A stretch of 64,000 nt of DNA, from positions 26,223 to 90,222 of the forward strand of contig JAQWFB010000005.1 in assembly GCA_028704635.1 (NCBI GenBank). Reading direction: 5' to 3'. Positions 5,026 through 60,430 of this stretch are shown in pieces (the first letter of the stretch is position 1; every line of letters begins with the position of its first letter). Source of the stretch: Candidatus Shapirobacteria bacterium. GTDB lineage: Bacteria > Patescibacteriota > Microgenomatia > UBA12405. The notes under the pieces are model-generated. The model had not been told where the DNA came from, did no database searches, and was given only the letters and a program-made list of their open reading frames with translations. The position numbers and the translations under genes were made by a program.

Positions 5026-5026
5026 T

Positions 5027-44378: not shown

Positions 44379-45262
44379 TGGAATTTCACACTCCTGTACT
44401 GTTAACTGAAACCATCGATCTTCTTGATGTCCAAAAAAATAAAATTTATATTGACGGCACTCTTGGTCATGGTGGGCATACTCTAGAAATTCTTAAAAGA
44501 GGCGGCATTGTATATGGTGTCGATCAAGACCCAAAAAATTTAGAAATCGCCACCAATCGAATCAAAAAAGCAGGATTTGAAAAACAATTTTTTCCAATTC
44601 ACAATAATTTTAATCAATTAGAAAATATTGTTAATAAAAATATTAAACAAAAGATTGACGGTCTAATCATTGATCTTGGTCTTAGTCAAAATCAGCAAAC
44701 CGATCAAGACAGGGGGTTTTCATTCAATGATGAAAATTCTCTCGATATGAGATTAGATCCAGAAAACCAAGAATTGACCGCCGAAGAAATTATTAATACC
44801 TATGATTACGATCAACTTTTCGAAATATTTAGTAAATATGCCCAAGAGGTCTATAGTAAACCGATCACTTTAAAAATTATCAGGGAACGCCAAAAAAAAC
44901 CAATTAAAACAGCCACAAGATTGGCAAATATTGTTAGAGATTTTTATAAAGAACGCCACATTAAATCAAAAATTGATCCCAGTACTAAAATATTTTTAAG
45001 TCTCAGAATTGTGGTTAACGACGAATTTAACAATTTAAAAAATTTCCTTGTTCAAAGTTTAAGAACTGTTGATAAAAACAGTAATGTTTGTATCATTTCT
45101 TTTCATTCCGGTGAAGATCGAATTGTTAAGCAATTCATCAAAGAATACTCTGATCAAAAAGTTATTATCGAAAACAAAAAACCTACTAAAACCTCTTTTC
45201 AAGAAACAAAGAAAAACCCTTTATCTCGCTCAGCTACTCTAAGATCGTATAAAATAGTATAA
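44378..45262 (+). CDS. rsmH: 16S rRNA (cytosine1402-N4)-methyltransferase RsmH/MraW
   Basis: MEFHTPVLLTE...DGTLGHGGH.. signature; first gene of the dcw cluster. Confidence 0.85.
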   Translation: MEFHTPVLLTETIDLLDVQKNKIYIDGTLGHGGHTLEILKRGGIVYGVDQDPKNLEIATNRIKKAGFEKQFFPIHNNFNQLENIVNKNIKQKIDGLIIDLGLSQNQQTDQDRGFSFNDENSLDMRLDPENQELTAEEIINTYDYDQLFEIFSKYAQEVYSKPITLKIIRERQKKPIKTATRLANIVRDFYKERHIKSKIDPSTKIFLSLRIVVNDEFNNLKNFLVQSLRTVDKNSNVCIISFHSGEDRIVKQFIKEYSDQKVIIENKKPTKTSFQETKKNPLSRSATLRSYKIV

Positions 45263-45263
45263 G

Positions 45264-45521
45264 ATGTTAAACAAACCGTTTTTTTTACTCATCTTTTTTT
45301 TGATAATTATTCAGGTCATTTTTTCGTTTTATTATTCCAGTGAAATTATTAATCAGAATAATTTAATTAATCAAAATCAAATCAATCTTCAATCTATTAA
45401 GATTAAAAATCAAGAATTAGAGGAAGAACTGGCCACTTTATCATCTTTATCTAGAATCGAAGCCACTGCCAGTCAAAAAAATTACAAAAATCTAAAAGAA
45501 ACTATAAATCTTCAAAATTAA
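45264..45521 (+). CDS. ftsL: FtsL/DivIC-like small bitopic division protein
   Basis: 85 aa, N-terminal TM plus coiled coil (..NQELEEELATLSS..); position between rsmH and ftsI. Confidence 0.4.
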   Translation: MLNKPFFLLIFFLIIIQVIFSFYYSSEIINQNNLINQNQINLQSIKIKNQELEEELATLSSLSRIEATASQKNYKNLKETINLQN

Positions 45522-45522
45522 A

Positions 45523-47175
45523 GTGCAAAATTCAAGATCTAAAATATTATCTATCGCTCTCACTTTTTGTTTTATTATTGTTTCTTTTCGTTTTTTTTAT
45601 TGGCAGGTTTTAAAAGCCCCGGAATTAAAAGAAAAAGCTAAAAATCAAACTTACAAACTTGAAAAATTATTACCAGAACGTGGAAAAATATATTCTTCTG
45701 ATAATTTTCCTTTGGTTTTAAATCAAACTACTTACCAACTTTCCCTTTATAAACCAAATTTTAAAGAAGATTTGGATAAAATTTTAGACCAAATTGAACA
45801 AACTTATCCAAATTTTAAAACTGAAAATAGCGAATCTCTGGAAAAATTTAAAAATAATCCAAACCAAAAATGGATAACTTTCAACTCTGCCTTAAACGAA
45901 AAACAAAAAAATACGTTATATATACCCGGAATTGAATTTCAAAAAATAGAAAAAAGATTTTATCCAGAAAATTCCATGGCTAAAGATATTCTTGGAGCTA
46001 TTGGTAAAGATCTTAGCGGAAACCAAATTGGATATGGCGGTCTCGAAGCTTTTTATCAAAAACAATTACAAGGAAAAACTGGTTTCGTTTGGGGACCCCA
46101 AGATGCCACCGGAAAAACTATTTTAAATAAAAAAAGTTGGAGTTCAGACGCTGTTAATGGCAGAAATATTTTTACCAATATTAATCGCAGTGCTCAATTT
46201 TACGTTGAAAAACTTCTTCAAAAAGGTATTAATGAATTTTCTGCTGATTCTGGCTCAATTACCATTATAGAACCAAAAACCGGAGCTGTTTTAGCTATGG
46301 CGTCTCTCACTGCCACCAATTCTGCTACTATCAGTTCAATCAGAAATCCTGCCATTTCTAATCTTTTTGAACCAGGATCAATTTTTAAACCATTAATAGT
46401 TTCTATGGCTCTCGACACTAAAGCCATCGACACCAATTACATCTGTACAAAATGTAATCAACCCCATACTATCGGTAAATATAATATTAGTAATTGGGAT
46501 AGCGAATTTCATGCTGATTCTAGTCTCCGAGATATTATTAAAAATTCCGACAACATCGGCATGAGTTATATTATTGCCAAACTTGGTCTTAATAATTTTT
46601 TAAATTATTATCAAAAACTCGGTCTAACCCAAAAAACCGGCATTGATCTTCAAGGGGAAGCTAAACCGACAGTTAAAACTGAGTGGCCAGAAATCGATTT
46701 AGCCACTGCTTCTTTCGGGCAAGGAATTGTTGTTACTCAAATCGGCATGCTCCAAGCTTTTAACACTATCGCTAATGACGGTATTTTAGTCAAACCTAAA
46801 GTCGTCAGTTATTTTACTGAAAACGATAAAATTATTAAAAATAAGAATCAAAAAGAAATCCAAGTTTTTAATCAACAAACCATAAAAGATATTAAATCGA
46901 TTTTAAAATATTCAGTTGAAAATGGTGTTGTCGCCAAAATGAAGCCTGAAAATCTTGAGGTTTGTGCTAAAAGCGGCACAGCTCAAGTAGCTATCAGTGG
47001 CAGTTATGAAAATAATTCTTCCACTATTGCTTCATATATTGGTTTTTCTCCTTGTTATAATCCCAAATTTACTATGATTGTCACTATTAATAACCCAAAA
47101 ACCTCACCATGGGGATCAAGCACTGCTGCTCCAATTTGGTATGAATTAGCATCAAAATTAAACGATTTGTTATAA
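45523..47175 (+). CDS. ftsI: Peptidoglycan D,D-transpeptidase FtsI (class B PBP)
   Basis: N-terminal TM, ..GSIFKP.. (SxxK), ..SDN.., ..KSGTAQ.. motifs. Confidence 0.8.
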   Translation: MQNSRSKILSIALTFCFIIVSFRFFYWQVLKAPELKEKAKNQTYKLEKLLPERGKIYSSDNFPLVLNQTTYQLSLYKPNFKEDLDKILDQIEQTYPNFKTENSESLEKFKNNPNQKWITFNSALNEKQKNTLYIPGIEFQKIEKRFYPENSMAKDILGAIGKDLSGNQIGYGGLEAFYQKQLQGKTGFVWGPQDATGKTILNKKSWSSDAVNGRNIFTNINRSAQFYVEKLLQKGINEFSADSGSITIIEPKTGAVLAMASLTATNSATISSIRNPAISNLFEPGSIFKPLIVSMALDTKAIDTNYICTKCNQPHTIGKYNISNWDSEFHADSSLRDIIKNSDNIGMSYIIAKLGLNNFLNYYQKLGLTQKTGIDLQGEAKPTVKTEWPEIDLATASFGQGIVVTQIGMLQAFNTIANDGILVKPKVVSYFTENDKIIKNKNQKEIQVFNQQTIKDIKSILKYSVENGVVAKMKPENLEVCAKSGTAQVAISGSYENNSSTIASYIGFSPCYNPKFTMIVTINNPKTSPWGSSTAAPIWYELASKLNDLL

Positions 47176-47188
47176 TTGAATACTTTCA

Positions 47189-48490
47189 ATGGTTCAAAAA
47201 TTTAAAAACGTCTTTCTACATTTACCAAAAAGTTTTTTTTACAATTTAAAGTACAGTTTTCCAAGTAAAAAATTAACTCTAATTGGTATCACTGGAACAG
47301 ACGGTAAAACTACTACTTGCACCCTAATTAATGAAATATTAAAACAATCTGGTCTAAAGACTGGGTTAATTACCACTATTGGTGCAAAAATTGGCGATAA
47401 AGAAATAGATACTGGCTTTCATACCACCACTCCAGACCCATCTATTCTTCAAAAAATTTTTAATGATATGGTGAAGGCTAGAATAACCCATGTTGTTTGT
47501 GAAGTTACCTCGCATGCCCTTGATCAATATCGTTTTTGGGGTTGCAACTTTGAAGTTTCTGGTATTACCAACACCTCACATGAGCATCTCGATTATCACA
47601 AAGATATAGAATCTTATATTGGAACTAAAGCCAAGCTTTTTTCAGTTTCCAAAAGTGCTGTTTTAAATAAAGATGATCAATCTTTCGACCTTATAAAAAA
47701 ACAAATTAAAATCCCTTTTAAAACATTTAGTATTAAAAAAACTTCAGACTATCAAGCCCAAAAAATTAAATTAGATTCAAACTCATTAAGCTTCCATATT
47801 AATGGTCAAAAATTTACTACCGACAGTAATTACGAATATCAAGTCTACAATATCCTTTTAGCCACCGCAATTTGCTACAAATTAGGAATAAGTTCAGAAA
47901 TAATTCAACGAGTAATAAAACATTTTCCAGAAACAAAAGGTCGTCGAGAAGAAATTCAAAATGAACTCAAATTTAAAACCATTATCGATTTTGCCCACAC
48001 TCCATTTGCTCTCGAGTCATCACTTTCTTCACTTAAGAAAACTAACCAAGGAAAAACTATAGTCATTTTTGGGGCCACTGGTGGACGAGATCAAAGTAAG
48101 CGCCCAATAATGGGTGAAATTGTTTCTAAATTAGCCAACATTGCCTTAATCACTTCCGACGATACTAGAAATGAAAAAATAGAAAATATTAATAAACAAA
48201 TAATAAGTGGTATTGATCCAAAAAAATCAGAATTGGTTGATTATCAAGAAGTTAAAAATAAAAAACAAATTCAAAAAGTACTCGAATTATCCAATAAAAA
48301 GTTTATATATTTTAATATTCCCAATCGCCAAGATGCTTTTAATTTGGCCATAAAATTAGCCCAGCCTAACGATGTTGTTATCGCCTGCGGTAAGGGCCAT
48401 GAAACCACTATTCTCCATGGACACACCGAATATCCCTGGTCAGAAGCAGAAGCTTTTAGAACCGCTTTCAGACTTCGAAAAACAAAATAA
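47189..48490 (+). CDS. murE: UDP-N-acetylmuramoyl-L-alanyl-D-glutamate--diamino acid ligase MurE
   Basis: ..GITGTDGKTTT.. P-loop, ..TTPDPS.., ..TSHALDQYR.., C-terminal ..GKGHE.. Confidence 0.7.
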   Translation: MVQKFKNVFLHLPKSFFYNLKYSFPSKKLTLIGITGTDGKTTTCTLINEILKQSGLKTGLITTIGAKIGDKEIDTGFHTTTPDPSILQKIFNDMVKARITHVVCEVTSHALDQYRFWGCNFEVSGITNTSHEHLDYHKDIESYIGTKAKLFSVSKSAVLNKDDQSFDLIKKQIKIPFKTFSIKKTSDYQAQKIKLDSNSLSFHINGQKFTTDSNYEYQVYNILLATAICYKLGISSEIIQRVIKHFPETKGRREEIQNELKFKTIIDFAHTPFALESSLSSLKKTNQGKTIVIFGATGGRDQSKRPIMGEIVSKLANIALITSDDTRNEKIENINKQIISGIDPKKSELVDYQEVKNKKQIQKVLELSNKKFIYFNIPNRQDAFNLAIKLAQPNDVVIACGKGHETTILHGHTEYPWSEAEAFRTAFRLRKTK

Positions 48491-48491
48491 T

Positions 48492-49100
48492 ATGACCCAA
48501 TTCAATTTAAAAAATACTAACAGTATTGACCAAAATTACAAAAACGGTCTTCTTCCTCAAAGAAACAATAAAAATTTATTTTATTATCAAACCAGTAGCC
48601 GTTCAAACTTAAAAAATTTTAATTTAAGCTCCGAAAATCGCCGAATTTTAAGAAAAACAGAAGACTTCATTTTTGAAAAAATACCTTTAAAAAATTTCAA
48701 CTACGATTCCAAAGTTCAAAAAGAAATTGTCACCTGGGTAAAAACACTTGGTTGGGATTTTCCGGTCAGTTCAATTAAAAATGTTTTTAAAAATCATATT
48801 TTTAACTATCTATATATATGGAAAGATGAGCAAAAAAATATTATTGCTTATTCTCTTTGTTATTTTTCAAAAGACATTAGTCATATCGCCTATGTTTTTT
48901 ATAATCCAGAATTGGCTCATGGGAATCTACCTATTCGTTTAGTCTTACAAGTCATCATCGACAGCCAAGAATTAGGTTTAAAATATTGTTACCTTGGTCG
49001 CTTTTCACAAGACACCGGTTTTTACAAACGCAACATGCCAGGTTTCGAATATTTCAATAACCAAAATTGGATTCCATATACTAATTTACCTAAATTTTAA
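48492..49100 (+). CDS. Bpt/ATE-family aminoacyl-tRNA--protein transferase-like protein (GNAT fold); start revised to the ATG at 48492
   Basis: ..LSSENRRILRK.. and C-terminal ..GLKYCYLGRFSQDTGFYKRNMPGFEYFNNQNW.. align with the Bpt/ATE_N-ATE_C pattern; the ORF-track start at 48372 overlaps the murE 3' end. Confidence 0.45.
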   Translation: MTQFNLKNTNSIDQNYKNGLLPQRNNKNLFYYQTSSRSNLKNFNLSSENRRILRKTEDFIFEKIPLKNFNYDSKVQKEIVTWVKTLGWDFPVSSIKNVFKNHIFNYLYIWKDEQKNIIAYSLCYFSKDISHIAYVFYNPELAHGNLPIRLVLQVIIDSQELGLKYCYLGRFSQDTGFYKRNMPGFEYFNNQNWIPYTNLPKF

Positions 49101-49102
49101 TT

Positions 49103-50476
49103 ATGCATATTCATATTTTAGGAATTGCCGGAACTATGACCGCTTCATTAGCCGCCGCCCTTAAAAAAGAAGGACACTTGGTTACCGGTTCAGATCAAGA
49201 AAAAATATACCCACCCGTCAGCACTATTCTTAAAAAAGCCGACATTAAAATCAATTCCTCAAAAATTGATTCCACTATAGATTTGGCCATAATTGGTTCG
49301 TCATTTTCTAATTTTCAAAAAACTAAAGAAGAATTTGATCAAATCAAAAAATTAAATATTAAATATATTTCTGCTAGTGAATTCATTGGTCAAAATTTAG
49401 GCAAAGAAGACTCTATCTTAATTGCCGGAACCTACGGTAAAACTACCATTTCTTCTCTTGTATCCTGGATTTTTGATCAGGCCAATTTGAACCCCAATTA
49501 TATGTTTGGTGGAAAAGCTTTAAACCATTTTCCCTCAATCAATATTTCATCATCAAATTGGTCAATTATTGAAGCTGACGAATCAATCCATGGTCTCGAT
49601 ACCCAAGCTAAATTTTTATATTATCCAGTCAAATTTTTATTACTAACTAGTGCTGATTGGGAACATAAAGATTCCTACCCAACTGAAATTGAAAATTTTA
49701 ACGCCTTCAAAAAATTAATTTTAAATGTTCCAACTGACGGAATTTTATTTATAAATTCCCAAGGATATCAAACAAAAAAATTAAGTCTTTACTCAAAATC
49801 AAAAATAATTACCTATAATTCACCAACATCCGACTATTTTATTAAAAATATAACAATCAGAAAAAATTATTCCATTTTAGATATAAAAACTCCCCGAAAT
49901 ATTATTCAAGCCAAAACCAAATTAATTGGCCAGTTTAATTTTGAAAATATTTTAGCCGCTATTACCATTACTGACAGTCTAAACATTCCCCAAACTAAAA
50001 TTAAACAATCCATTTTTAAATTTAAAGGAATTACTCGTCGAATTGAAAAAATTTATAACCATAAAAATATTATTATATTTGATGATTTTGCCCAATCTTC
50101 CAATAGAATTAAATCAACTATTGCGGCTATAAAATTTCATTATCCAAAAAATAATATTAAAGTTTTATATCAACCTCATGCTTCCTTTATTCAACATAAG
50201 GAAAGTCTAAAAGAATTTAAAAACGTTTTTGATTCAGTTTCCGAAGTCGTTTTATCTAAATTAAGTTTTAATAATAAAGCCGAAAAAAATAATCGTGTTA
50301 CCGCTAAAGATTTCAAAGAGGTGATTGGTGATAAATTAATATATCTTCCTGTCGATGAAGATATATGTTCTTTTTATAAAAAAAATCTCAAAAGTGGCGA
50401 CATTCTAATTAATATGAGTTCTGGCGGTTTTAGTGGAAATAAAATTGTAAAATCTATTATTAATTCTTTAAAATAA
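49103..50476 (+). CDS. murC: MurC/Mpl-family Mur ligase (UDP-N-acetylmuramate--L-alanine ligase or Mpl)
   Basis: ..HIHILGIAGTMTASLA..GSDQEKIYPPVST.. closely resembles the MurC/Mpl N-terminus; ..AGTYGKTT.. P-loop. Confidence 0.6.
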   Translation: MHIHILGIAGTMTASLAAALKKEGHLVTGSDQEKIYPPVSTILKKADIKINSSKIDSTIDLAIIGSSFSNFQKTKEEFDQIKKLNIKYISASEFIGQNLGKEDSILIAGTYGKTTISSLVSWIFDQANLNPNYMFGGKALNHFPSINISSSNWSIIEADESIHGLDTQAKFLYYPVKFLLLTSADWEHKDSYPTEIENFNAFKKLILNVPTDGILFINSQGYQTKKLSLYSKSKIITYNSPTSDYFIKNITIRKNYSILDIKTPRNIIQAKTKLIGQFNFENILAAITITDSLNIPQTKIKQSIFKFKGITRRIEKIYNHKNIIIFDDFAQSSNRIKSTIAAIKFHYPKNNIKVLYQPHASFIQHKESLKEFKNVFDSVSEVVLSKLSFNNKAEKNNRVTAKDFKEVIGDKLIYLPVDEDICSFYKKNLKSGDILINMSSGGFSGNKIVKSIINSLK

Positions 50477-50479
50477 TTT

Positions 50480-51808
50480 ATGTCCAGATATATCATTAAC
50501 GGCGGTAAACCACTCAAAGGTGAAGTTTCTATTAGAGGTGCTAAAAACGCCAGTTTCAAACAAATAATTGCCTCCATGTTAACTGATAAAACAGTTCAAT
50601 TAAATAATGTCCCTCAAATTTCCGATGTTAAAATTACCACTAGTATCGCCAAAAGTCTTGGATGCCAAATAACTCAAACAGGGGAGCATAGTCTTGAACT
50701 AACCACTTCTAAAATAATTAATTCCACCGTTCCCAGCGGTACTGGCGAAAAATCTAGAACCTCATTTATGTTTGTCGCTCCATTACTTACTAGAACTGGA
50801 ACTGCCATTGTCCCAACCCCAGGCGGTGACAAATTAGGAGATCGACCATTAGATCGTCTTTTTGATTGTTTCTCTCAAATGAATATTAAAGTTTCCGAAA
50901 CCGAAAATAATATTACTTTTAATACCGACAAAATTGTTGGTACCCATTATACTTTTACAAAACCTTCTCACACGGTCACTGAAGTAATTATTATGACTGC
51001 TGTTCTCGCCAATGGCGAAACAATCATCGATAATGCCGCTCTTGAGCCAGAAATTGATGATTTAATTTTAATGTTAAATCAAATGGGAGCCAAAATTCAA
51101 AGAGATTCCAAAAATAACAAAAGAATAATCATTCAAGGCGTATCCAAATTAAATGGAACTGAACATGATGTAATTTGCGATCGAAACGAAATTGTCACTT
51201 TTGCTTGTGCTGCCTTAGCCACCAAGGGTTCAGTTTCTATTTTTAGAGTCAAACCCAACGTTGTTCAAACATTTTTGGAAATTATTGAAAAAATGGGGGC
51301 TAAAATTAAAACCGGCAACGATGAAATTTATGTCGAATGGGTTAAACCCCTTACCAATATTGATATCGAAACCGAACCAGAACCTGGATTTATGACCGAT
51401 TGGCAAGCTATTTTCTCTGTTCTTTTAACTCAGACTGTCGGCTGTAGTTCTATTATTGAAAGAGTTTATCCTAGTAGATTTCAACACATCGAAAATCTTA
51501 AAAAGATGGGGGTTAAAGTTAATTTCTTCAATCCAGAAATAAACAATTCTAGAGAATATTATCAATTTAATAAAGAAAGTGATCGCCCAGAATATTTTCA
51601 TGGTGTTAAAATTTATGGCCCAACCAAATTAAAACCGGCCAATTTTGTTATTAAAGATCTTCGGGCTGGAGCTTCAGCCACCATTGCAGCCCTAACTGCA
51701 TCAGGAAAATCAACTATCGACGGAGTTGAATATATTGAGCGTGGATACGAAAAATTAGCTGAGCGTCTTTGGTCTTTAGGTGCTAACATAGAATATATAA
51801 AAACCTAA
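50480..51808 (+). CDS. murA: UDP-N-acetylglucosamine 1-carboxyvinyltransferase
   Basis: ..INGGKPLKGEVSIRGAKNAS.. EPT-family N-terminus; length 442 aa. Confidence 0.85.
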   Translation: MSRYIINGGKPLKGEVSIRGAKNASFKQIIASMLTDKTVQLNNVPQISDVKITTSIAKSLGCQITQTGEHSLELTTSKIINSTVPSGTGEKSRTSFMFVAPLLTRTGTAIVPTPGGDKLGDRPLDRLFDCFSQMNIKVSETENNITFNTDKIVGTHYTFTKPSHTVTEVIIMTAVLANGETIIDNAALEPEIDDLILMLNQMGAKIQRDSKNNKRIIIQGVSKLNGTEHDVICDRNEIVTFACAALATKGSVSIFRVKPNVVQTFLEIIEKMGAKIKTGNDEIYVEWVKPLTNIDIETEPEPGFMTDWQAIFSVLLTQTVGCSSIIERVYPSRFQHIENLKKMGVKVNFFNPEINNSREYYQFNKESDRPEYFHGVKIYGPTKLKPANFVIKDLRAGASATIAALTASGKSTIDGVEYIERGYEKLAERLWSLGANIEYIKT

Positions 51809-51812
51809 TTTT

Positions 51813-52847
51813 ATGATTCATCTATATCTAGGCCTACTACTTTTTTCTTTTTTAATCACCAGTATTTTGGTCGTCCCTTTTATTAATCTTCTTTATAAAT
51901 TTAAATTTCAACGACAAACTCAAAAAACGACTGATTTTCAAAACAAAAGAACCACTATCTTTGATAAGTTTCATAATTTAAAATCAGGTACTCCTGTTGG
52001 AGGCGGTTTACTAATTATTACCACTGTTTCCATTCTTTTTATTTTACTTTTCCCAGTTCTTAAATTTTCTCGAATCTTTATTTCCTCTAATTACACCATC
52101 ACCCATGAAATTGCTATTCTATTTTTCACCTTCATTAGTTTTGGTTTACTCGGCCTTTATGACGATGTACATAAATTCTTTGGATTCAAAAAGACTGGGT
52201 TTTTTGGCTTAAGAATGATTCATAAATTAATTTTACAAATAATAATTTCATTAATTATTTCCTTCATGATTTATTTTCAATTAAAAATTGATTTTATTTA
52301 TCTACCGTTTTTTGGCGCTATTAACCTAGGATTTTTCTTTATCCCAATTTCTGTCCTTTTTATTACTGGTTTTGCTAATTTTTTTAATATTACTGATGGC
52401 TTAGATGGTTTATCTTGTGGTCTTTTAATGTTTGCCCTCTTTGCCTTTTGGATTTTAGCCAGCACTTCAATGGATACGGTTCTTTCTTCATTTTTAGCTC
52501 TCTGGATCGGTTCTCTAATAGCGTTTCTTTATTTCAATGTCTATCCAGCTAGAATCTGGCTCGGTGATGTTGGCTCACTTTCTTTCGGCGCCACTTTTGC
52601 TGTTATTGCCCTACTTTTGGGAAAAGTAGTTCCTTTACTTATTGTCGGATCTCCTTTTATCGTCGAAGGTTTATCCAGTGCCATTCAATTATTTAGCAAA
52701 AAATATTTTAAAAGGAAAGTTTTTCCTGCCGCCCCAATTCATTTAACCCTTCAAAATTTAGGCTGGGAAGAACCAAAAATCGTTTTTAGGGCTTGGTTAG
52801 CCGGAATTATATTAGCAGTTTTTGGACTATGGCTAGGACTAAATTAG
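51813..52847 (+). CDS. mraY: Phospho-N-acetylmuramoyl-pentapeptide-transferase
   Basis: ..NITDGLDGL.., ..WLGDVGSL.., ..AAPIHLTLQNLGWEEPKIV.. MraY motifs. Confidence 0.85.
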   Translation: MIHLYLGLLLFSFLITSILVVPFINLLYKFKFQRQTQKTTDFQNKRTTIFDKFHNLKSGTPVGGGLLIITTVSILFILLFPVLKFSRIFISSNYTITHEIAILFFTFISFGLLGLYDDVHKFFGFKKTGFFGLRMIHKLILQIIISLIISFMIYFQLKIDFIYLPFFGAINLGFFFIPISVLFITGFANFFNITDGLDGLSCGLLMFALFAFWILASTSMDTVLSSFLALWIGSLIAFLYFNVYPARIWLGDVGSLSFGATFAVIALLLGKVVPLLIVGSPFIVEGLSSAIQLFSKKYFKRKVFPAAPIHLTLQNLGWEEPKIVFRAWLAGIILAVFGLWLGLN

Positions 52848-53368
52848 AACTACAACAAGAAATTGAGAAATATATCGGCCTACCTTACAGTAAGAATATC
52901 CTTAAAGACGGTAAAATAATCAAAGAGCAATTTCTTGGAGGTAAAGGTAATTGTCGACAAATTGCCACTGAAACCATCAGACTCGCTCAAAAACAAAAAA
53001 TAGATTTAACTCAGTTAAACAATCAAGAATTTTATAATTTTCAAAAAAAGAACCATATTGGCATCGATTGTTCCGGCCTTGCTTGCCAATTATTAAATTT
53101 TTATTTTAATTCTGAATTAAATCCTCGCAAAACTTCTGCCAATATGCTCACTTCTGCTCCAATCTCACAAGAAATAAAACCAAGTGAGATTAAAACAGGT
53201 GATTTAGTCCGACAAAAAAACGGCCACCATATTTTATTTATCATCGAAAAACAGGGTAATGTTATTAATTATGTCGACAGCTCCATCTCTGGCAGGGGAG
53301 TAAAATACGGACAAACCAATCTTACCGACAAATCCTTTATCAACCAGGGTTTTTTCAGACTAAATTAA
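52829..53368 (+). CDS. NlpC/P60 (C40) family peptidase without a signal peptide; start revised to 52829 (MARTKLEL..)
   Basis: ..IGIDCSGLACQLL.. catalytic Cys motif and ..GDLV...GHHILFI.. His motif; 19-nt overlap with the mraY 3' end. Confidence 0.5.
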   Translation: MARTKLELQQEIEKYIGLPYSKNILKDGKIIKEQFLGGKGNCRQIATETIRLAQKQKIDLTQLNNQEFYNFQKKNHIGIDCSGLACQLLNFYFNSELNPRKTSANMLTSAPISQEIKPSEIKTGDLVRQKNGHHILFIIEKQGNVINYVDSSISGRGVKYGQTNLTDKSFINQGFFRLN

Positions 53369-53369
53369 T

Positions 53370-53528
53370 TTATTTTTCCTCAATCAATTCCCTATACTTT
53401 AATGGATTTAAAGATAAAATTTCCACTTCAGTCCCACATTCAGGACATTCAATAATATCTCCCACCATCGTGGCTTCTGTTAATTCAATTTCTGTTTCAC
53501 AATCTGGACAAATAACTTTTTCGTTCAT
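53370..53528 (-). CDS. LysW-like zinc-ribbon protein (52 aa), absent from the ORF track because it is under 60 aa
   Basis: MNEKVICPDCETEIELTEATMVGDIIECPECGTEVEILSLNPLKYRELIEEK: CPxC..E[IL]ELxE...GD[IV][IV]ECPxCG.E[VL]E[IV]LSLNPL matches the amino-group carrier protein LysW zinc-ribbon core; lacks the canonical ..EDWGE C-terminal tail; no clear SD. Confidence 0.55.
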   Translation of the reverse strand: MNEKVICPDCETEIELTEATMVGDIIECPECGTEVEILSLNPLKYRELIEEK

Positions 53529-53568
53529 ATTTTATTAAAATTAATAACTAGTATAATTAAACTATTAT

Positions 53569-54390
53569 ATGGCAAATACACCTTTAATTAAATTAGAAAA
53601 TGTTTATTTAAAAAGAGAAGATTTAAACGAGACCGGATCAGCCAAAGATCGAGCCATGATTTTTCAAATTGAAAATTTAAAAAAACAGGATTTTAAAACT
53701 GCTGTCATCTCCAGTACTGGTAATGCCGCCATTTCCGCCGCCCATTTTTGCCACCTCAATCAAATCAACCTAACTATTTTTGTTTCCCCTAAAATCAATC
53801 AAGCTAAATTTGATTTACTTAAAAAAGATGGTGGTCAAATTTTTATTACCGATCAACCAATCAGTGAATCCATAAAATTTTCTAAAAAAAATCATGCTTA
53901 TCTTCTTCGTCAATCCACCGACCCAAGTGCCCTAATTGGCTACCAAGAAATTGGTAAAGAACTAATGAATAAACTACCCCAAATTACCAGTATTTTCGTT
54001 CCAGTCGGCAGCGGCACCACCCTTTTGGGAATTTCTCAAGCACTGCCATCATCAGTTAAAATTTATGCTGTTCAACCAGCCAGTAATTGTCCTTTATCTA
54101 AATTTTTTGATTCAGACTACCAACCAGAAATAGAAAATATTACCGACGCCCTTTCCGCCAAATATCTTCCTTTAAAATCTCAAATAATTTCCGCCATTAA
54201 AAATAGTGGTGGCACTGGCTTAATTGTTCAAAATAATGAAATTTTAGAAGCCCAAAAAATATTAGACTTAAACGAAATTAAAACCTCTCTAGAGGGCGCT
54301 TTAGCCTTTGCAGGTTATAAAAAAGCCATCAAAAATAACCTAAACATAGGCAATTATCCAGTAGTAATTTTAACCGGATGTCAAAGATAA
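53569..54390 (+). CDS. PLP-dependent enzyme, fold type II (tryptophan-synthase-beta/threonine-synthase-like), short form of 273 aa
   Basis: ..TGSAKDRAM.. catalytic Lys motif, ..VISSTGNAAISAA.., Gly-rich ..VPVGSGTT.. Confidence 0.65.
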   Translation: MANTPLIKLENVYLKREDLNETGSAKDRAMIFQIENLKKQDFKTAVISSTGNAAISAAHFCHLNQINLTIFVSPKINQAKFDLLKKDGGQIFITDQPISESIKFSKKNHAYLLRQSTDPSALIGYQEIGKELMNKLPQITSIFVPVGSGTTLLGISQALPSSVKIYAVQPASNCPLSKFFDSDYQPEIENITDALSAKYLPLKSQIISAIKNSGGTGLIVQNNEILEAQKILDLNEIKTSLEGALAFAGYKKAIKNNLNIGNYPVVILTGCQR

Positions 54391-55484
54391 ATTTAGAAAA
54401 TATTATTAATCAATCCCCTTATATTTTCTTTTTTCTGGTTGTCGATAAATTTTTAGACATCGAAATTCCTCAATTAAAAAATTTTGAAAAAATCTATCTT
54501 TCTGATTATTCATCGATCAAAGAAAAAAACAGTGGCAAACTACTATCAAACCCAAAAATTATTGACTATATTTTAAAAAAATCTCAAAAAACTAAACTTA
54601 TTCCCGCCATCATTCCCTTTAAGCCATCGGCCAAAATTGATTTAATTTGTCAAAAATATAATTGGATAAATATAAGTAATCCTGGACCAATCAATCGTTT
54701 TTTGGAAGACAAAATTAAATTTGCCAAACTTTGTCAAAAATACAAATTACCCACAATTCCTTTTACTATCGATACTTTCTCTCACCAAAATTTTTTGAAA
54801 TATCAAAAACTTTACAATAAAAAATTAGTTCTCCAGACCCATTTTGGTTGGGCTGGCAATAGTACATTTTCGGCCGAATCTTGGGATGAAATTAAAGATA
54901 AAATTTCTTCTAATGTTATTGTAAAATATAGCCCTTTTATTCAATCTTCCTACTCTTTACTAAATAATTGTTGTCTTACTAAATTTGGTCTAATTCAAAG
55001 TCCACCTGCTCTTCAATACACTGGAATTTTTCCCTACACTAAAAATCCCTTCACTACTGTCGGTCGCCAATGGCCATCTTTTGCTCCCCTAAAAATAATT
55101 AAAGAAATTAATAAAATAACCGAAAATTTTAGTAAAATTTTAAAAGAAATTAATTATAAAGGTTTTTTTGGTCTCGATTTTTTAATTTATAAAAATAAAG
55201 TTTTTTTACTAGAATGCAATCCTCGTCTTACTGCTTCCTTTAGTTTTTATACAAAAATGGAACAAAAACAAAATATCACTCCTCTTTTCTATTTCCATAT
55301 TGCCGAATTATCAAAAATTGATTATCAAATTAATCTAAAACAAGAACAATTAAGATTCAATAATAAAAAAATTATCGGTTCTGAACTAACCCCAAAAGAT
55401 AAAAATAATTACACTTGCCAAAAGTTAAACTTTGACTATCCCTTATCAAAAACCACCAACCCTATCTCTCTCAAAAAAAAATAA
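54378..55484 (+). CDS. ATP-grasp ligase with a Ddl-like C-terminal domain and a ~100-aa N-terminal extension
   Basis: ..NRFLEDKIKFAKLCQKYKLPTIPF.. and ..GFFGLDFLIYKNKVFLLECNPRLTASFSF.. parallel Ddl ..[28 protein letters not shown]..; lacks the Ddl N-terminal HGxxGEDG motif. Confidence 0.5.
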   Translation: MSKINLENIINQSPYIFFFLVVDKFLDIEIPQLKNFEKIYLSDYSSIKEKNSGKLLSNPKIIDYILKKSQKTKLIPAIIPFKPSAKIDLICQKYNWINISNPGPINRFLEDKIKFAKLCQKYKLPTIPFTIDTFSHQNFLKYQKLYNKKLVLQTHFGWAGNSTFSAESWDEIKDKISSNVIVKYSPFIQSSYSLLNNCCLTKFGLIQSPPALQYTGIFPYTKNPFTTVGRQWPSFAPLKIIKEINKITENFSKILKEINYKGFFGLDFLIYKNKVFLLECNPRLTASFSFYTKMEQKQNITPLFYFHIAELSKIDYQINLKQEQLRFNNKKIIGSELTPKDKNNYTCQKLNFDYPLSKTTNPISLKKK

Positions 55485-56651
55485 ATGAAAGAAAATAAGT
55501 CACCTCTTCTATTTCTGGTTTTCAGTTTAGTTTTTATCGGGCTGATTTTTATTTCTATTTCATCACTAGGCGAAGCCAGTTCTTCAATTGGAGATAAATT
55601 CTTTTATATTAAAAAACAAGGATTTTGGCTTGTTTTGGGAATAATTTCTTTTTATGTAACTTCAAAAATAAATATTAAAACTATTAAAAAATTCTCTTTC
55701 GCCCTTTATGCGATTTCTATTTTGGGTTTAATTTTAGTTTTAATTCCAAGTCTAGGCAATGAAGCTCTCGGCGCCAGACGTTGGTTAAATTTAGGTTTTA
55801 CTAGCATTCAACCTTCAGAAATTTTAAAATTAACTTCAATTATTTATTTTTCTTCTCTTTTTTCAAAAAAGGAAAATCTCAATATTAAAAACCTAATTTT
55901 TTACCTTGGGCTTCCCTTCATTCTAATAATTATAGAACCAAATTTAAGCACCGCTATTTTAATTTCAGCCATTGTTAGTTCCATTTATTATCTCTCCGGG
56001 GGAGACATCGTTCCTTTGTTTAGTATTTTTAGTATTATTTTAGTAATTAGTATTCCACTAATTTTTTTATCACCATATCGATCAGCTAGATTAAAAACTT
56101 TTTTAGAACCGCAACAAAATCAAGAAACTTCATCGTACCACAGCAATCAAATTATCTTAACTCTTTCTTCTGGAGGATTTTTTGGTAAGGGTTTTGCTAA
56201 CTCAGATCAAAAATATAAATTCCTCCCCAAAATTTCTACCGATTCAATTCTTGCCGTTATTGGCGAAGAGGTTGGTTTTATAGGAATTTTTGCAGTTTTA
56301 TTAGTTTATCTTTCTTTAATAAATTATCTTTTAAGATTTTCTCAAACAATAGACGATCCATTTCAAAGTTTAATAGTATCCGGAAGCGCTTGTTGGATCG
56401 CTTATCAAAGCCTGATTAATATTTCTGCCATTACTGCCCTCATTCCTCTAACTGGCGTTACCCTCCCATTTATTTCTTATGGCGGTTCCTCTCTTATTAC
56501 TCTTTTTATTGTTATTGGTCTAGTCAGAAATATCGAAAAAAATCAAAAAATATTGTTATACTCAAAGAGTGAACAAAGTAAAAAAGACGATAATAATCAC
56601 CGGAACACACTTAACTCCAGCACTAGAACTCATTCGTCAACTGAAAGCTGA
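55485..56651 (+). CDS. ftsW: SEDS-family peptidoglycan glycosyltransferase FtsW
   Basis: About 10 TM segments, ..PLTGVTLPFISYGGSS.. SEDS motif; dcw position. Confidence 0.8.
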   Translation: MKENKSPLLFLVFSLVFIGLIFISISSLGEASSSIGDKFFYIKKQGFWLVLGIISFYVTSKINIKTIKKFSFALYAISILGLILVLIPSLGNEALGARRWLNLGFTSIQPSEILKLTSIIYFSSLFSKKENLNIKNLIFYLGLPFILIIIEPNLSTAILISAIVSSIYYLSGGDIVPLFSIFSIILVISIPLIFLSPYRSARLKTFLEPQQNQETSSYHSNQIILTLSSGGFFGKGFANSDQKYKFLPKISTDSILAVIGEEVGFIGIFAVLLVYLSLINYLLRFSQTIDDPFQSLIVSGSACWIAYQSLINISAITALIPLTGVTLPFISYGGSSLITLFIVIGLVRNIEKNQKILLYSKSEQSKKDDNNHRNTLNSSTRTHSSTES

Positions 56652-57645
56652 TAAAAAGAACGATTGGCAAATAAATTACATTGGTCGAAAAAATAATTCT
56701 AGTGTCGATTACACTCCTTCGATTGAATCAAAAATTATCCCAAAAATAGGTATAAAATTTTATTCGATCAACTGCGGCAAACTGGATCGTCGTTGGCTTC
56801 CAAACACTATTAAAGGCCTTCCCCAAACCACCGCCTCTTTATTTGAATCATTAAAATTAATTAAAAAAATAAAACCAGATATTATTGTTTCTTTTGGTGG
56901 ATATGTTTCTGTTCCAGTAATTATTAGTGGTTTTCTTAAAAAAATACCATCTATTACTCATGAACAAACCCTAACCAATAGTTTAACTACCAAAATTAAT
57001 AGTTTTTTTGTTGATAAAATTGCCCTTTCTTTCAAAAATCAACATCAAAAAGAAAAACTTCCTAAAAATAAAATAGTTGTCACTGGAAATCTTTTAAGAC
57101 AAGAGATTTTTCATCCTCAAAAAAATAAAATAGGAAATGATATTGATATTTTTATAACCGCGGGAAATCAAGGCTCTCACACAATAAATCTTTTAATAAA
57201 AAAAATTCTTCCTAAATTAAAAGACTATTATATTATCCATCAAACAGGCAAAAATGATTTTAATAGTTTTAAACAATTAACCAATATTTACCAAAAATAT
57301 CAGGCTTTTAGTTATTTGGAATCAAGCGACATGGCCTATGTTTTAAATAAAACAAATTTAATTATTAGCCGTTCCGGTGCCAACACTAGCCAAGAAATTG
57401 TCGCATTAAACAAAAAATCAATTTTAATTCCCTTAAAAATCAGTCAACAAAATGAACAATTATTAAATGCTCTCTGGGTTAAAGAAAAAAATCCCCAAAA
57501 TACGGAAATAATAGAAGAAAAAGATATTACTGAAAAAAATATTTTAGAAAATATAAATAAATTAATTACTAATAAAACAAAAAAAGTCGTCATTAAAAAT
57601 ACTGATAATCTAAAACTTTTAAACCTAATTCATGAAATTCTTTAA
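56569..57645 (+). CDS. murG: UDP-GlcNAc--lipid I N-acetylglucosaminyltransferase MurG
   Basis: ..IIITGTHLTPALEL.., ..KPDIIVSFGGYVSVP.., ..HEQTLTNS.. MurG pattern. Confidence 0.8.
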   Translation: MNKVKKTIIITGTHLTPALELIRQLKADKKNDWQINYIGRKNNSSVDYTPSIESKIIPKIGIKFYSINCGKLDRRWLPNTIKGLPQTTASLFESLKLIKKIKPDIIVSFGGYVSVPVIISGFLKKIPSITHEQTLTNSLTTKINSFFVDKIALSFKNQHQKEKLPKNKIVVTGNLLRQEIFHPQKNKIGNDIDIFITAGNQGSHTINLLIKKILPKLKDYYIIHQTGKNDFNSFKQLTNIYQKYQAFSYLESSDMAYVLNKTNLIISRSGANTSQEIVALNKKSILIPLKISQQNEQLLNALWVKEKNPQNTEIIEEKDITEKNILENINKLITNKTKKVVIKNTDNLKLLNLIHEIL

Positions 57646-58015
57646 AATTTTTCTATTTGTCATTTTTTTTACTAGCCTTTCTTTTTCTATTTATTCATTT
57701 ACTAATTCTTCTCAAGAAAAAATCAATCCGATTTCAGATAAAAACAATTTTTATTTTCAATTAGAACATGGTTTAAAAACTGCTCAAATTAATATTACAA
57801 AAAACACTATTAAGGATTATCAAAATCAATTAGAATTCTATATAATTAATGAAAGTAACAATCCAACCAAAATTATTTTATCTACTCAAAAAAATCCCTA
57901 TTGGCAGATTGCTTCTTTACAAGAAATTTTAAAAACAGCTAAAATTAATAATAAGCAACTGCAATTAGTTAATCTAAGTATCAACCATCCATATGCAACA
58001 TTCAAAAATAATTAA
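57632..58015 (+). CDS. Small bitopic protein at the ftsQ position (FtsQ/DivIB-like, tentative)
   Basis: N-terminal TM, 127 aa, immediately upstream of ftsA; no strong motif. Confidence 0.3.
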   Translation: MKFFKIFLFVIFFTSLSFSIYSFTNSSQEKINPISDKNNFYFQLEHGLKTAQINITKNTIKDYQNQLEFYIINESNNPTKIILSTQKNPYWQIASLQEILKTAKINNKQLQLVNLSINHPYATFKNN

Positions 58016-59249
58016 TGTAATCGACATTGGCACTTCAAAAGTTACCACACTAGTTGGGCAGTATTTAGATGCTGATGATAAATTTAACATCATTGCCGTT
58101 TCCTCAATTCCATCTCTTGGTTTTCGAAAAGGCCAAATAATTAACTTAGAACAAGCTTCTCAAACCATCACTCAAAGCATCGAATCTGCCGAAAGAATGG
58201 CTGGTTTTCAAATAAACAGTGCCAATATTTCTATTTCTGCTCCTCATATTGAATCAATTAATTCTCATGGTGTTGTTGCCATCAGTAATCCAAATGGTGA
58301 AATAGATATTAACGATATCACTCGTGTAACCGAAGCCGCCAAAGCTATTTCTTTGCCAAGTGGTAAAGAAATAATTCATATTATCCAAAGAAAATTTACT
58401 GTCGACGGCCAAGAAGGTGTCATTGACCCAATTGGAATGAACGGCATCCGACTCGAAGTTGAAGCTCATTTAATTTTAGCCTCTAGCCCGGCTCTTAAAA
58501 ATCTAAAAAAATGTCTTGAAGATATTGGTATTAAAGTCGAATCTTTAACTTATGCTGGTCTCAGCACAGCTACTGCTGCTCTAACCGACACTGAAAAAGA
58601 ACTCGGCGTTGCTCTGGTTGATATTGGTGGTAGTATTACCAATATTACTATTTTTATCGAAGGTTCCCCAGTATTTTCATCAGTCATTCCCATTGGTGCC
58701 AACAATGTTACTAATGACCTTGCTATTGGTCTTCGATTTTCCATTGAAGACGCTGAAAAAATAAAATTAAAATTAGCCAAATTGTTCGAAAACAAAAAAT
58801 TTGAAGATGAAGTTGAATTGTCCCATTTTGACATCCATTCCGAAGACAAGAAAAAAATTTCTCTCCAGACTGCCATTAATGGCATAATTAAACCTCGACT
58901 TGAAGAAATTTTTTGTTTAATTTATTCACAAATTGAAACCAGTGGTTTTCATCAATCAATTCCTGCCGGAATTGTTTTAACTGGTGGCGGCGCCATGACT
59001 GTTAATGCTAAAGAAATTTGCAACCGAACTATTCCTCTTCCACTAAGAATTGCCAATCCACCAAAAGTAGGTGGTATAGTTGATGATATTATGAATCCAG
59101 CTTATACTAGCACTATTGGTCTTTTGCTTTACAATAAAAATGTCAAAAAAGGCAGTGGTTCAAATACTAAAGGTATTAAAGCCCCCAAAATTTCCATGAG
59201 TGGATTTTTTGATAAGATCAAAAAAATACTAGAACCACTTTTACCCTAA
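57993..59249 (+). CDS. ftsA: Cell division protein FtsA
   Basis: Actin-fold motifs ..[14 protein letters not shown].., ..[11 protein letters not shown].., ..VLTGGGA.. Confidence 0.85.
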
Positions 59250-59251
59250 AT

Positions 59252-60430
59252 ATGGGATTAATTAAAACTCTTACTGGACAATTTGCCAAAATAAAAGTCA
59301 TCGGAGTCGGTGGCGGTGGTAATAATGCCATTAATTCAATGATTACCGAAGATGCCATCAAAGGTGTCGACTTCATCGCCGTTAATACTGATTCTCAAGC
59401 CCTCTTAAATTCTCTTGCTTCAATCAAAATCCAAATTGGTGAAAAATTAACCAAAGGTCTTGGTGCTGGAGGTAATCCCCAAATGGGACAAAAAGCCGCC
59501 GAAGAATCAAAAGAAAGAATCAAAGAAGTTTTACAAGGCACCGATATGGTTTTTGTCACTGGTGGTATGGGTGGCGGCACATGCACTGGAGCCGCTCCAA
59601 TTATTGCCCAAATCGCCAAAAAAGAATTAGGAATTTTAACTATTGGTGTTGTTACTAAACCATTTTTGTTTGAAGGCACTCGTCGTATGACCAATGCCGA
59701 AGAAGGAATTTCTCAATTAAGAGAAAATGTTGACACTTTAATTGTTATTCCCAATCAAAAAGTCATGGAAGTTGTCAACAATAAGGCAACACTTTTAGAA
59801 GCCTTTAAAATTGCTGATTCTGTTTTAAGCAAAGGAACTAAAGCCATCGCTGATTTAATCACTGTTCCTGGATTAATTAATCTAGATTTTGCCGATATTA
59901 AGGCTGTTATGAGTAATGCCGGCTCTGCTCTTATGGGAACAGGTGAAGCCGAAGGAGAAAATAAAATCCAAAAAGCCGTTGAAGACGCCATTGATTCTCC
60001 ATTAGTTGAAGTTAATATTGAAGGTGCTAGAGGAGTTTTGATTAATGTTACTGGCGGACCCGATATCACCATGTCTGAAATTGAAGAAGCCGCTAGAAAT
60101 ATTACTGAACGAACCGCTCCAGACGCCAATATTATTTTTGGAGCTACCATCGACAAAGAACTCAAAGGCAAAGTTAAGATTTCTGTTATCGCGACTGGGT
60201 TTGACACTAGTCGGGCTAATCTTTATCAGCATATTAAAAAACCACAACCAACTCTAATAAATTTACCAAATCAACCCAAACCCCAAACACAGGAAAATAA
60301 AAATACATTAGAAGAATCAAATCTTAGTGATAATCGAATAAAAGAATTCTTAAATACTAAAGAAGTTCCCACTGGCATCGATATCATCGACGAATACGAT
60401 ATCCCTGCTTTCCTGAGAAAAAATAAATAA
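59252..60430 (+). CDS. ftsZ: Cell division GTPase FtsZ
   Basis: ..[17 protein letters not shown].. and ..[12 protein letters not shown].. tubulin signature. Confidence 0.9.

Follow-up and report, generated by a model that had tools for sequence, protein, structure and literature searches.

The closest known counterpart of the gene group described here is the LysW/ArgW system (LysX/ArgX, LysZ, LysY, LysJ and LysK; Thermus, Sulfolobus and Thermococcus; AmCP in Streptomyces), in which the canonical LysW carrier ends in the tail EDWGE and holds the cargo on its last glutamate. To our knowledge, LysW carriers have so far been known only to protect amino groups in lysine and arginine biosynthesis and in a few secondary-metabolite pathways. 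We analyzed a 64-kb stretch of DNA (the window) from Candidatus Shapirobacteria, a member of the Microgenomates in the Candidate Phyla Radiation (CPR), a large group of ultra-small, uncultivated bacteria. In this window, the usual site of murD in the division and cell wall (dcw) cluster, flanked by mraY (plus a small NlpC/P60 gene) and ftsW, is occupied by genes for a 52-amino-acid (aa) LysW-like protein, a fold-type II pyridoxal phosphate (PLP) enzyme and an ATP-grasp ligase. Judged from their sequences and gene neighborhoods, they belong to a module of several genes that serves peptidoglycan-precursor metabolism and is conserved in part of the CPR.

The module resembles the LysW/ArgW system in having an acidic protein of about 50 aa, homologous through PF21344, in which a zinc ribbon of two CxxC pairs is combined with a flexible, acidic tail at the C terminus and whose gene lies beside those of an ATP-grasp ligase and an amide hydrolase. 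It differs in several respects. The tail of its small protein ends in lysine, not glutamate, and lacks EDWGE; the candidate modifying enzyme is a fold-II PLP enzyme, whereas LysW systems use a kinase, a reductase and an aminotransferase; and the hydrolase is of the NlpC/P60 type, in contrast to the M20 enzyme of the LysW system. The genomic context is that of peptidoglycan rather than of lysine or arginine synthesis, and the polarity of attachment is probably reversed. No LysZ-, LysY-, LysJ- or LysK-like genes were seen in the neighborhoods, where the genes from rsmH to ftsZ all match dcw or module genes, although LysZ/Y/J/K profiles were not run.

Parts of the arrangement recall other systems. 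RacD is a cofactor-independent racemase and not a fold-II PLP enzyme. In lactic acid bacteria, this aspartate racemase and the ATP-grasp D-aspartate ligase AslA (Aslfm) belong to one peptidoglycan operon, and AslA acylates the epsilon-amine of lysine via a side-chain acyl phosphate (PMC4155827). The module is similar in that it combines a racemase-type enzyme with an ATP-grasp enzyme in a peptidoglycan setting, a likeness of arrangement and of proposed chemistry. Unlike in the module, the acceptor of RacD/AslA is the stem peptide itself, and neither a carrier protein nor an amidase is involved. In glutathionylspermidine/trypanothione synthetase-amidase, an ATP-grasp-type ligase is fused to a papain-like (CHAP/NlpC-P60-type) amidase, both acting on the same bond; unlike in the module, the substrates are unrelated, the domain order is opposite, and there is no carrier or PLP enzyme. 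In the MurD2/MurL route of Xanthomonas, L-Glu is reportedly ligated first, with ATP, and epimerized afterwards while tethered. This is likewise a non-canonical route around the D-Glu step, but its tether is UDP-N-acetylmuramic acid (UDP-MurNAc)-L-Ala, its ligase is a Mur ligase and its epimerase is not a PLP enzyme. MurD2 has been described as belonging to an alternative early peptidoglycan-synthesis pathway (PMC8788868).

The 52-aa open reading frame (ORF) and the two ORFs of its divergent neighbors had been pointed out in a preliminary description of this locus, whose coordinates and quoted peptide proved exact. The small protein matched Zn_ribbon_LysW (PF21344) at 49.6 bits (gathering score, 27), and 45 of its residues aligned with solved LysW proteins of Thermococcus (5k2m_E; E = 9e-8) and Thermus (3wwl_A; E = 2.5e-6), in agreement with the LysW-like identity first proposed. 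Of the two profiles suggested at that time as a check, it thus passed PF21344 and missed the equivalog cut-off of TIGR01206 (39.8 versus 53.2 bits); that of NF041070 was also missed (36.6 versus 75). The ORF had been called unannotated, but some orthologs already bear the name 'lysine biosynthesis protein LysW' in NCBI and JGI records. The protein is acidic (pI 4.05), with invariant CxxC pairs at C7/C10 and C28/C31. Over the last 30 codons of 71 sequences (the window and 70 orthologs), summed column entropy amounted to 15.8, 6.7 and 39.3 at codon positions 1, 2 and 3, respectively. This concentration of variation at third positions indicates that the small ORF is a real gene under strong purifying selection and not a chance reading frame.

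We then compared the C-terminal tails. The window protein ends in ELIEEK, which confirms the non-canonical tail reported initially, and the consensus of the Shapirobacteria-type sequences is E-L-(I/V)-E-E-K with E50 and K52 invariant. A terminal lysine was found in 69 of 70 such sequences. The sole ortholog without it (L074, 91-234, minus strand) also lacks the stop codon and reads through (...GELVEENGQVH...), perhaps because of a sequencing error or because the copy has decayed. All 37 metagenome sequences ended in lysine as well (DEGK, 14; IEEK, 11; EEEK, 6; VEEK, 4; TEEK, 1; EMEK, 1), further lineages contributed the tails EEEK (two), LEEK, EEDK, TEEK and EDQK, and a motif search added four DEGK/EEEK copies. 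Among all complete tails of LysW-like orthologs, none was of the EDWGE type with a final glutamate. One homolog (L100, 8730-9010, minus strand) carries a long Asp/Glu-rich N-terminal extension (...YDDDDDDDDMEEDDTDG...) and still ends in IEDQK. By homology, then, the 52-aa protein belongs to the LysW-type zinc ribbons, and its tail is non-canonical and ends in lysine. We propose it as a putative carrier, to which cargo may be attached at the terminal lysine or at the tail carboxylates.

The dcw cluster of the window (44378-60430, plus strand) begins with rsmH, ftsL, ftsI, a MurE-like ligase gene, an ATE_C-like gene, a MurC/Mpl-like ligase gene, murA and mraY. It continues with the small NlpC/P60 gene, the 52-aa ORF, the PLP and ATP-grasp genes, ftsW, murG, ftsQ, ftsA and ftsZ. 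The LysW-like gene is antisense within this otherwise co-directional operon. Its start codon is separated from that of the divergent PLP gene by 40 nucleotides (nt) (53529-53568; typically 17 to 55 nt in orthologs), and the PLP and ATP-grasp ORFs share 13 nt at their junction. A TATAAT sequence is located 12 to 17 nt ahead of the PLP start; a promoter/terminator scan did not rise above chance (15 sites versus 13.1 expected).

When one genome per species was scanned, close relatives of the ligase turned up in 91 species; 80 loci were retrieved and analyzed. A LysW-like gene was present in all 70 loci with sequence upstream of the PLP gene (the L070 copy being partly N-masked). The trio was contiguous in 69 of these 70, mraY was upstream in 65 of 65, and NlpC/P60 and ATE_C-like genes were also conserved in the Shapirobacteria-type loci. 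The trio therefore holds together as a conserved unit at the murD position of the dcw cluster, as had been surmised, and in relatives it was found between mraY and ftsW in all 65 to 70 informative species-level loci.

A ligase profile search extended the family to 226 clusters (50% identity) below E = 1e-30, and distant ATP-grasp genes (25 to 39% identity) were again accompanied by an antisense LysW gene and a PLP gene. The distant trio is located between mraY and ftsW in L085, L086 and L092; it adjoins mraY and a FemX-like (canonical FemAB-family) gene in L093 and a Mur ligase gene in L095. Metagenome loci, sorted by means of a tblastn panel, showed two architectures. Type A (23 loci) has the Shapirobacteria gene order, and type B (30 loci, 32 to 57% G+C) has the order ATP-grasp (with NlpC/P60), mraY, ATE-like, MurC-like, antisense LysW and PLP. 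Common to both are the lysine-ended LysW (LysW-K), the PLP enzyme, the ATP-grasp ligase, NlpC/P60, the ATE-like and MurC-like proteins and MraY. In the metagenome loci too, the LysW-like gene divergently adjoins every PLP gene whose upstream sequence is covered.

The PLP protein, which is 100% identical to an NCBI protein (P0121) of a Candidatus Shapirobacteria metagenome-assembled genome, has a clear PALP domain (PF00291, 158 bits). Its Schiff-base lysine K26 (in GSxKxR), SS(S/T)GN substrate loop and (S)SG phosphate loop are invariant across lineages, and so is R114, which is specific to the PLP family of the module. No equivalog cut-off was reached by this protein (TIGR00260, 34.5 versus 167.1; best ThrC-type model, 94.8 versus 358). 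Enzymes of the ThrC type bind phosphate through an NxxR(L/I)EGQKT motif. Profile alignment with B. subtilis ThrC paired NPYRLEGQKT with DPSALIGYQE, in which the arginine is missing, and a threonine synthase was therefore rejected. The enzyme lies at equal distance from threonine synthase, dehydratases, racemases and cysteine synthase, and by fold no group is nearer to it than the Asp and Ser racemases. Thus, 'threonine-synthase-like' does not hold as a specific assignment. With no equivalog match and the ThrC arginine motif missing, the type of reaction is not readable from sequence or fold. E242, a glutamate at the pyridine-N1 position, was considered as a mechanistic clue and dropped, as this position is E or N in deeper lineages.

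The ATP-grasp fold of the ligase was confirmed (PF02655, ATP-grasp_3), with conservation of the Mg/ATP residues K112, D267, E279, N281 and R283, and its structure was predicted as a single chain with a pLDDT of 94.5. The nearest folds were those of PurK, biotin carboxylase, BesA and PGM1, with BesA and PGM1 ahead of LysX/ArgX; structural comparison gave 18.9 for Ddl and 17.0/16.5 for LysX/ArgX. The protein had been described as Ddl-like, but it scored 13.6 bits on PF07478 (cut-off, 24) and 16 bits on TIGR01205 (cut-off, 245.65), with no match to the N-terminal domain, and its nearest fold is not Ddl. A LysX/ArgX (RimK)-type partner ligase was also rejected, as LysX/ArgX ranked behind other folds. 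The ligase clade is thus neither Ddl nor LysX/RimK. Neither a UDP-sugar-binding domain nor any likeness to Mur ligases was detectable with domain models and fold comparison. BesA joins the gamma-carboxyl group of Glu to an amino acid, with later enzymes acting on the gamma-glutamyl conjugate, and PGM1 acylates the amine of a ribosomal peptide. Both (PDB 8yi6 and 3wvq, respectively) are about 10 to 11% identical to the ligase, belong to secondary metabolism and, unlike the module, have no zinc-ribbon carrier. A glutamine, Q153, directly precedes the glycine-rich loop (LVLQTHFGWAGNST) and is invariant throughout the family, also in its fused and distant members; in most ATP-grasp enzymes this position is a lysine.

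The NlpC/P60 protein of the window matched PF00877 marginally (23.5 bits versus a gathering score of 23), and an alignment of 69 sequences (the window and 68 orthologs) showed conservation of at least 95% for its catalytic C93 (in GIDCSGL) and H146. Hydropathy analysis found no hydrophobic segment in the protein counted from its conserved methionine. This indicates a cytoplasmic location, with which fusions to the cytoplasmic ligase agree. A canonical NlpC/P60 domain is fused to the ATP-grasp domain in P0416, P0436, P0462 and P0502 (62 to 71 bits), and an NlpC-like domain of the window type in P0508 (E = 5e-15). Other relatives of the ligase are fused to a PALP domain (P0419) or to a GNAT domain (P0485). 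NlpC/P60 enzymes cut gamma-D-glutamyl-diamino-acid bonds, and we propose that this one serves as the release or editing amidase of the module. Synteny and fusions together indicate that LysW-K, the PLP enzyme, the ATP-grasp ligase and NlpC/P60 form one functional unit in peptidoglycan-precursor metabolism. A link to this pathway had already been suggested, and synteny in many lineages and the gene fusions strongly support it.

Table 1. Features of the dcw cluster in the 64-kb window that belong to or border the module
Feature	Position	Strand	Remarks and evidence
LysW-like zinc-ribbon protein	53370..53528	-	52 aa; PF21344, PDB LysW chains, codon-position entropy, tail conservation
Fold-type II PLP enzyme, minimal	53569..54390	+	273 aa
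ATP-grasp ligase, distinct clade	54378..55484	+	368 aa
NlpC/P60-like cysteine amidase	52829..53368	+	Start at conserved M13 of the ORF called at 52793; PF00877
ATE_C-like (arginyl/leucyl-tRNA-protein-transferase fold)	48492..49100	+	ORF called from 48372; PF04377 (24.9 bits) and arginyltransferase models
MurC/Mpl-like Mur ligase	49103..50476	+	TIGR01082 and TIGR01081 scores; PDB matches to MurC and Mpl
MurE-like ligase	47189-48490	+	N-terminal UDP-binding domain 1 missing
MraY, upstream border of murD slot	51813..52847	+	ORF and synteny; also in type B clusters
FtsW, downstream border of murD slot	55485..56651	+	PF01098 (300 bits)

We consider it likely that the module takes part in the metabolism of stem-peptide building blocks. 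PLP enzymes require a free alpha-amino group, which would exclude canonical LysW chemistry, where cargo is held by its alpha-amine. The C-terminal residue that bears the cargo has changed from glutamate to an invariant lysine and the ligase is of another clade, with BesA and PGM1 among its fold neighbors, and we therefore propose, as the simplest arrangement in which each part has a role, that the polarity of attachment is reversed. An acidic amino acid would be activated by the ligase at one of its carboxyl groups (the gamma-carboxyl of L-Glu being the most plausible choice) and linked through it to the epsilon-amine of the carrier's terminal lysine, so that the alpha-amino-acid end of the cargo stays free for the PLP enzyme. 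The latter would convert the tethered residue, with L-to-D epimerization favored and beta-replacement as an alternative. The NlpC/P60 amidase would then release the product or pass it to a Mur ligase, so that it would feed stem-peptide synthesis, most likely as D-Glu for the MurD step. The covalent use of a LysW carrier with reversed polarity, as outlined here, is a tentative proposal, for which RacD/AslA and MurD2/MurL serve as precedents. The recurrent tie of the module to the position of MurD points to the D-glutamate step, yet that D-Glu is indeed the product we hold to be doubtful. Equally doubtful as a complete scheme is a D-glutamate route of the CPR that would be driven by ATP and independent of MurI. 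L-Glu, or another acidic amino acid, would be tethered through an isopeptide bond formed by the ATP-grasp enzyme to a LysW that would be the first to act as a 'carboxyl-group carrier', epimerized by the PLP enzyme and released by a D-specific NlpC/P60 enzyme, and in Shapirobacteria, whose murD slot holds no murD, the route may also deliver residue 2 of the stem.

Several observations weigh against this interpretation. Every chemical step in it, i.e., loading, substrate and stereochemistry, is one that we infer, and dehydratase, beta-replacement and racemase activities are not distinguishable for the PLP enzyme by sequence or fold. Carboxylases (PurK and biotin carboxylase) rather than peptide ligases are the top structural neighbors of the ligase. 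L085 and L092 have no NlpC/P60 gene in the immediate cluster. Conversely, about 10 loci (including L106, L122, L127, L143, L145, L151, L153, L164 and L171) carry ATP-grasp and NlpC/P60 genes but have neither a LysW nor a PLP gene within 10 kb, which indicates that the ligase/amidase pair can work without a carrier. MurD is clustered with the module less often than the MurC-like and ATE-like genes are, suggesting that the product may concern another position of the stem peptide. Lastly, certain ligase relatives (P0388, P0437 and P0450) are encoded away from any cell-wall context. The presence of relatives in unrelated contexts indicates that the wider family is not uniformly tied to the module. 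Among the relatives outside the module are L091, L096 and L097; one relative clusters with 7TM-transglutaminase, ATPgrasp_ST, MATCAP, FGase and GNAT genes, and lone relatives adjoin F-ATPase or flagellin genes.

The alternative that fares best, although we judge it unlikely, is that the PLP enzyme and the ligase are a racemase and a D-amino-acid ligase working on free amino acids or on UDP-MurNAc-peptide, as analogues of Alr/Ddl or RacD/AslA, and that the LysW-like protein is a non-covalent accessory or regulator. The Alr/Ddl version would make a D-aa-D-aa dipeptide, and the RacD/AslA version would add a D-amino acid to the stem lysine. The EEK end would mimic a lysine-terminated tripeptide, and NlpC/P60 would be a VanX-like editing peptidase. 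The overlap of the PLP and ATP-grasp genes and their fusion in P0419 fit such a pair, as does a PLP fold that is as near to Asp/Ser racemases as to anything else. The SS(S/T)GN loop, which we take to be shared with fold-II racemases, agrees with it too. The dcw cluster contains no ddl or alr, ATP-grasp and NlpC/P60 occur at some loci without LysW or PLP genes, and the RacD/AslA operon provides a precedent (PMC4155827). However, a racemase/ligase pair leaves unexplained the strict pairing of LysW with PLP genes (70 of 70 loci, and each type B locus that has a PLP gene) and the invariant terminal lysine with its acidic tail, and the Ddl-specific models remain unmatched.

The location of the module raised the possibility that it stands in for MurD. 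Neither murD nor murF was found within 10 kb of the ATP-grasp gene in the 80 species-level loci or in the 64-kb window, and the MurD and MurF queries matched only MurE-like and MurC-like genes there, indicating that the module does fill the murD slot. The cluster of the L085/L107 lineage contains murE, murC and a MurF-like gene and lacks only murD. In Shapirobacteria the module could thus replace MurD, and MurI with it, the ATP-grasp enzyme adding the second residue to UDP-MurNAc-L-Ala. The exact fit to the mraY-ftsW slot favors this idea. Nevertheless, we find it improbable, since the ligase shows no detectable UDP-sugar-binding domain or likeness to Mur ligases, the search for murD covered only 10 kb around the ATP-grasp gene and the 64-kb window, and MurD can be a neighbor of the module. 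In L095, a MurD gene abuts the LysW-like gene (TIGR01087, 228.5 bits versus a cut-off of 211.95). L100 has a five-gene island in a non-dcw context, made up of NlpC/P60, a MurD-like ligase (186 bits), LysW-K, PLP and ATP-grasp genes, and in L116 and L129 the module has weaker MurD-like ligases as neighbors. The adjacent MurD genes of L095 and L100 indicate that in some lineages the module works with MurD and is not simply its substitute. Replacement of MurD as the general function of the module, as the preliminary description had envisaged, was rejected on these grounds.

The Mur ligases upstream in the cluster are themselves unusual. The MurC-like ligase scored 234 bits on TIGR01082 (cut-off, 335) and 171 on the mpl model TIGR01081, with Mpl as its second-best PDB match, and its N-terminal UDP-binding domain is intact; its substrate for ligation may be a preformed peptide instead of L-Ala. 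The MurE-like ligase starts late, with about residue 22 aligning with residues of about 92 to 138 of solved MurE chains, and the end of ftsI 14 nt upstream leaves no room for the missing N-terminal domain. In L085, the MurF-like ligase (4574-5836) begins at profile position 65, and only the MurC/Mpl-like ligase retains an N-terminal domain. From these truncations, the later ligases (MurE-like and MurF-like) could act on a substrate that is not UDP-linked.

These features bear on another possibility, the salvage of murein peptides. Imported host peptides would be trimmed by NlpC/P60 and rebuilt or epimerized by the ATP-grasp and PLP enzymes, and the MurC/Mpl-like ligase would re-attach them to UDP-MurNAc. 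The MurC-like genes reach 171 to 225 bits on the Mpl model and stay below the MurC cut-off, Mpl is the second-best PDB match, and the NlpC/P60 protein is cytoplasmic, as is the NlpC/P60 enzyme of the B. subtilis YkfC recycling pathway. Moreover, amino-acid biosynthesis is lacking in CPR bacteria, whose supply is thought to come from other organisms or dead cells (PMC7143001). On the other hand, the cluster includes no transporter or LD-carboxypeptidase, the MurE-like gene is kept and the LysW-like carrier is given no role, and salvage appears to us a distinctly unlikely function.

Less probable still is a regulatory cycle on the C terminus of the small protein, comparable to RimK/S6 or tubulin tyrosine ligase/vasohibin, which would tune wall synthesis or division with no metabolite involved. 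Pairs and fusions of a ligase with a papain-like amidase are typical of cycles of addition and removal, glutathionylspermidine synthetase/amidase being the classic fused case, and MATCAP and 7TM-transglutaminase genes accompany one relative of the ligase. Such a cycle, however, accounts neither for the obligatory PLP partner nor for the operon-level coupling to Mur ligases and MraY, which makes it very unlikely. Finally, an ordinary LysW of lysine or arginine biosynthesis, as implied by the NCBI/JGI ortholog names and the PF21344 match, has next to no probability, as both equivalog cut-offs are missed, the terminal Glu and EDWGE are absent, no LysX/RimK-type ligase is present, the context is dcw, and no LysZ/Y/J/K-like gene was seen; a canonical LysW system fails on tail, ligase type and context alike.

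Besides the module itself, the ATE_C-like gene always adjoins the MurC-like gene in both architectures; in the window it is located between the MurE-like and MurC-like genes. In L086 (1331-3268), the two are fused into a protein of 645 aa. By its fold family, the ATE_C-like protein is probably a tRNA-dependent aminoacyl transferase of the same neighborhood, and by analogy it may act on a cell-wall precursor as FemX does. In L093, a canonical FemAB-family gene is found beside mraY in place of the ATE_C-like gene.

The window has a G+C content of about 30%. Ahead of the dcw cluster, positions 1-41700 comprise a very long run of glycan/envelope-polysaccharide genes, as read from the translations, with many GT2/GT4 glycosyltransferases, DegT-type aminotransferases, UDP-sugar dehydrogenases/epimerases, a flippase and O-antigen-ligase-like membrane proteins. 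On related contigs that extend beyond the window, the same glycan-synthesis set was found upstream, with a class-I aminoacyl-tRNA synthetase as the only addition. GC skew on the plus strand was negative in 30 of 32 consecutive 2-kb bins, down to -0.39, and about +0.01 to +0.02 in the other two, despite most genes being on the plus strand. The title of a report on a closed Microgenomates genome mentions an unusual disparity in nucleotide composition between DNA strands (PMC7143001).

A full-text literature search found no paper linking LysW-like proteins to the CPR, to peptidoglycan or to PLP/ATP-grasp/NlpC modules, in agreement with the original statement that no such arrangement had been described. 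The parts come from known families and the nearest system is that of LysW/AmCP; their arrangement is apparently undescribed. As CPR bacteria are reported to lack amino-acid biosynthesis, the name 'lysine biosynthesis protein LysW' is almost certainly wrong for the small gene. The proteins of the module are small and soluble, which makes them amenable to mass-shift and complementation assays. Peptidoglycan-precursor synthesis is among the best-mapped and most drug-targeted bacterial pathways, and here a conserved and unexplained insertion of four to seven genes lies at its center. Its occurrence in at least 91 species-level genomes and in many CPR lineages from metagenomes suggests an unrecognized step or an alternative supply route, possibly for D-glutamate. 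If this is true, the use of LysW carriers would extend to the cell wall, probably with the opposite chemical polarity.

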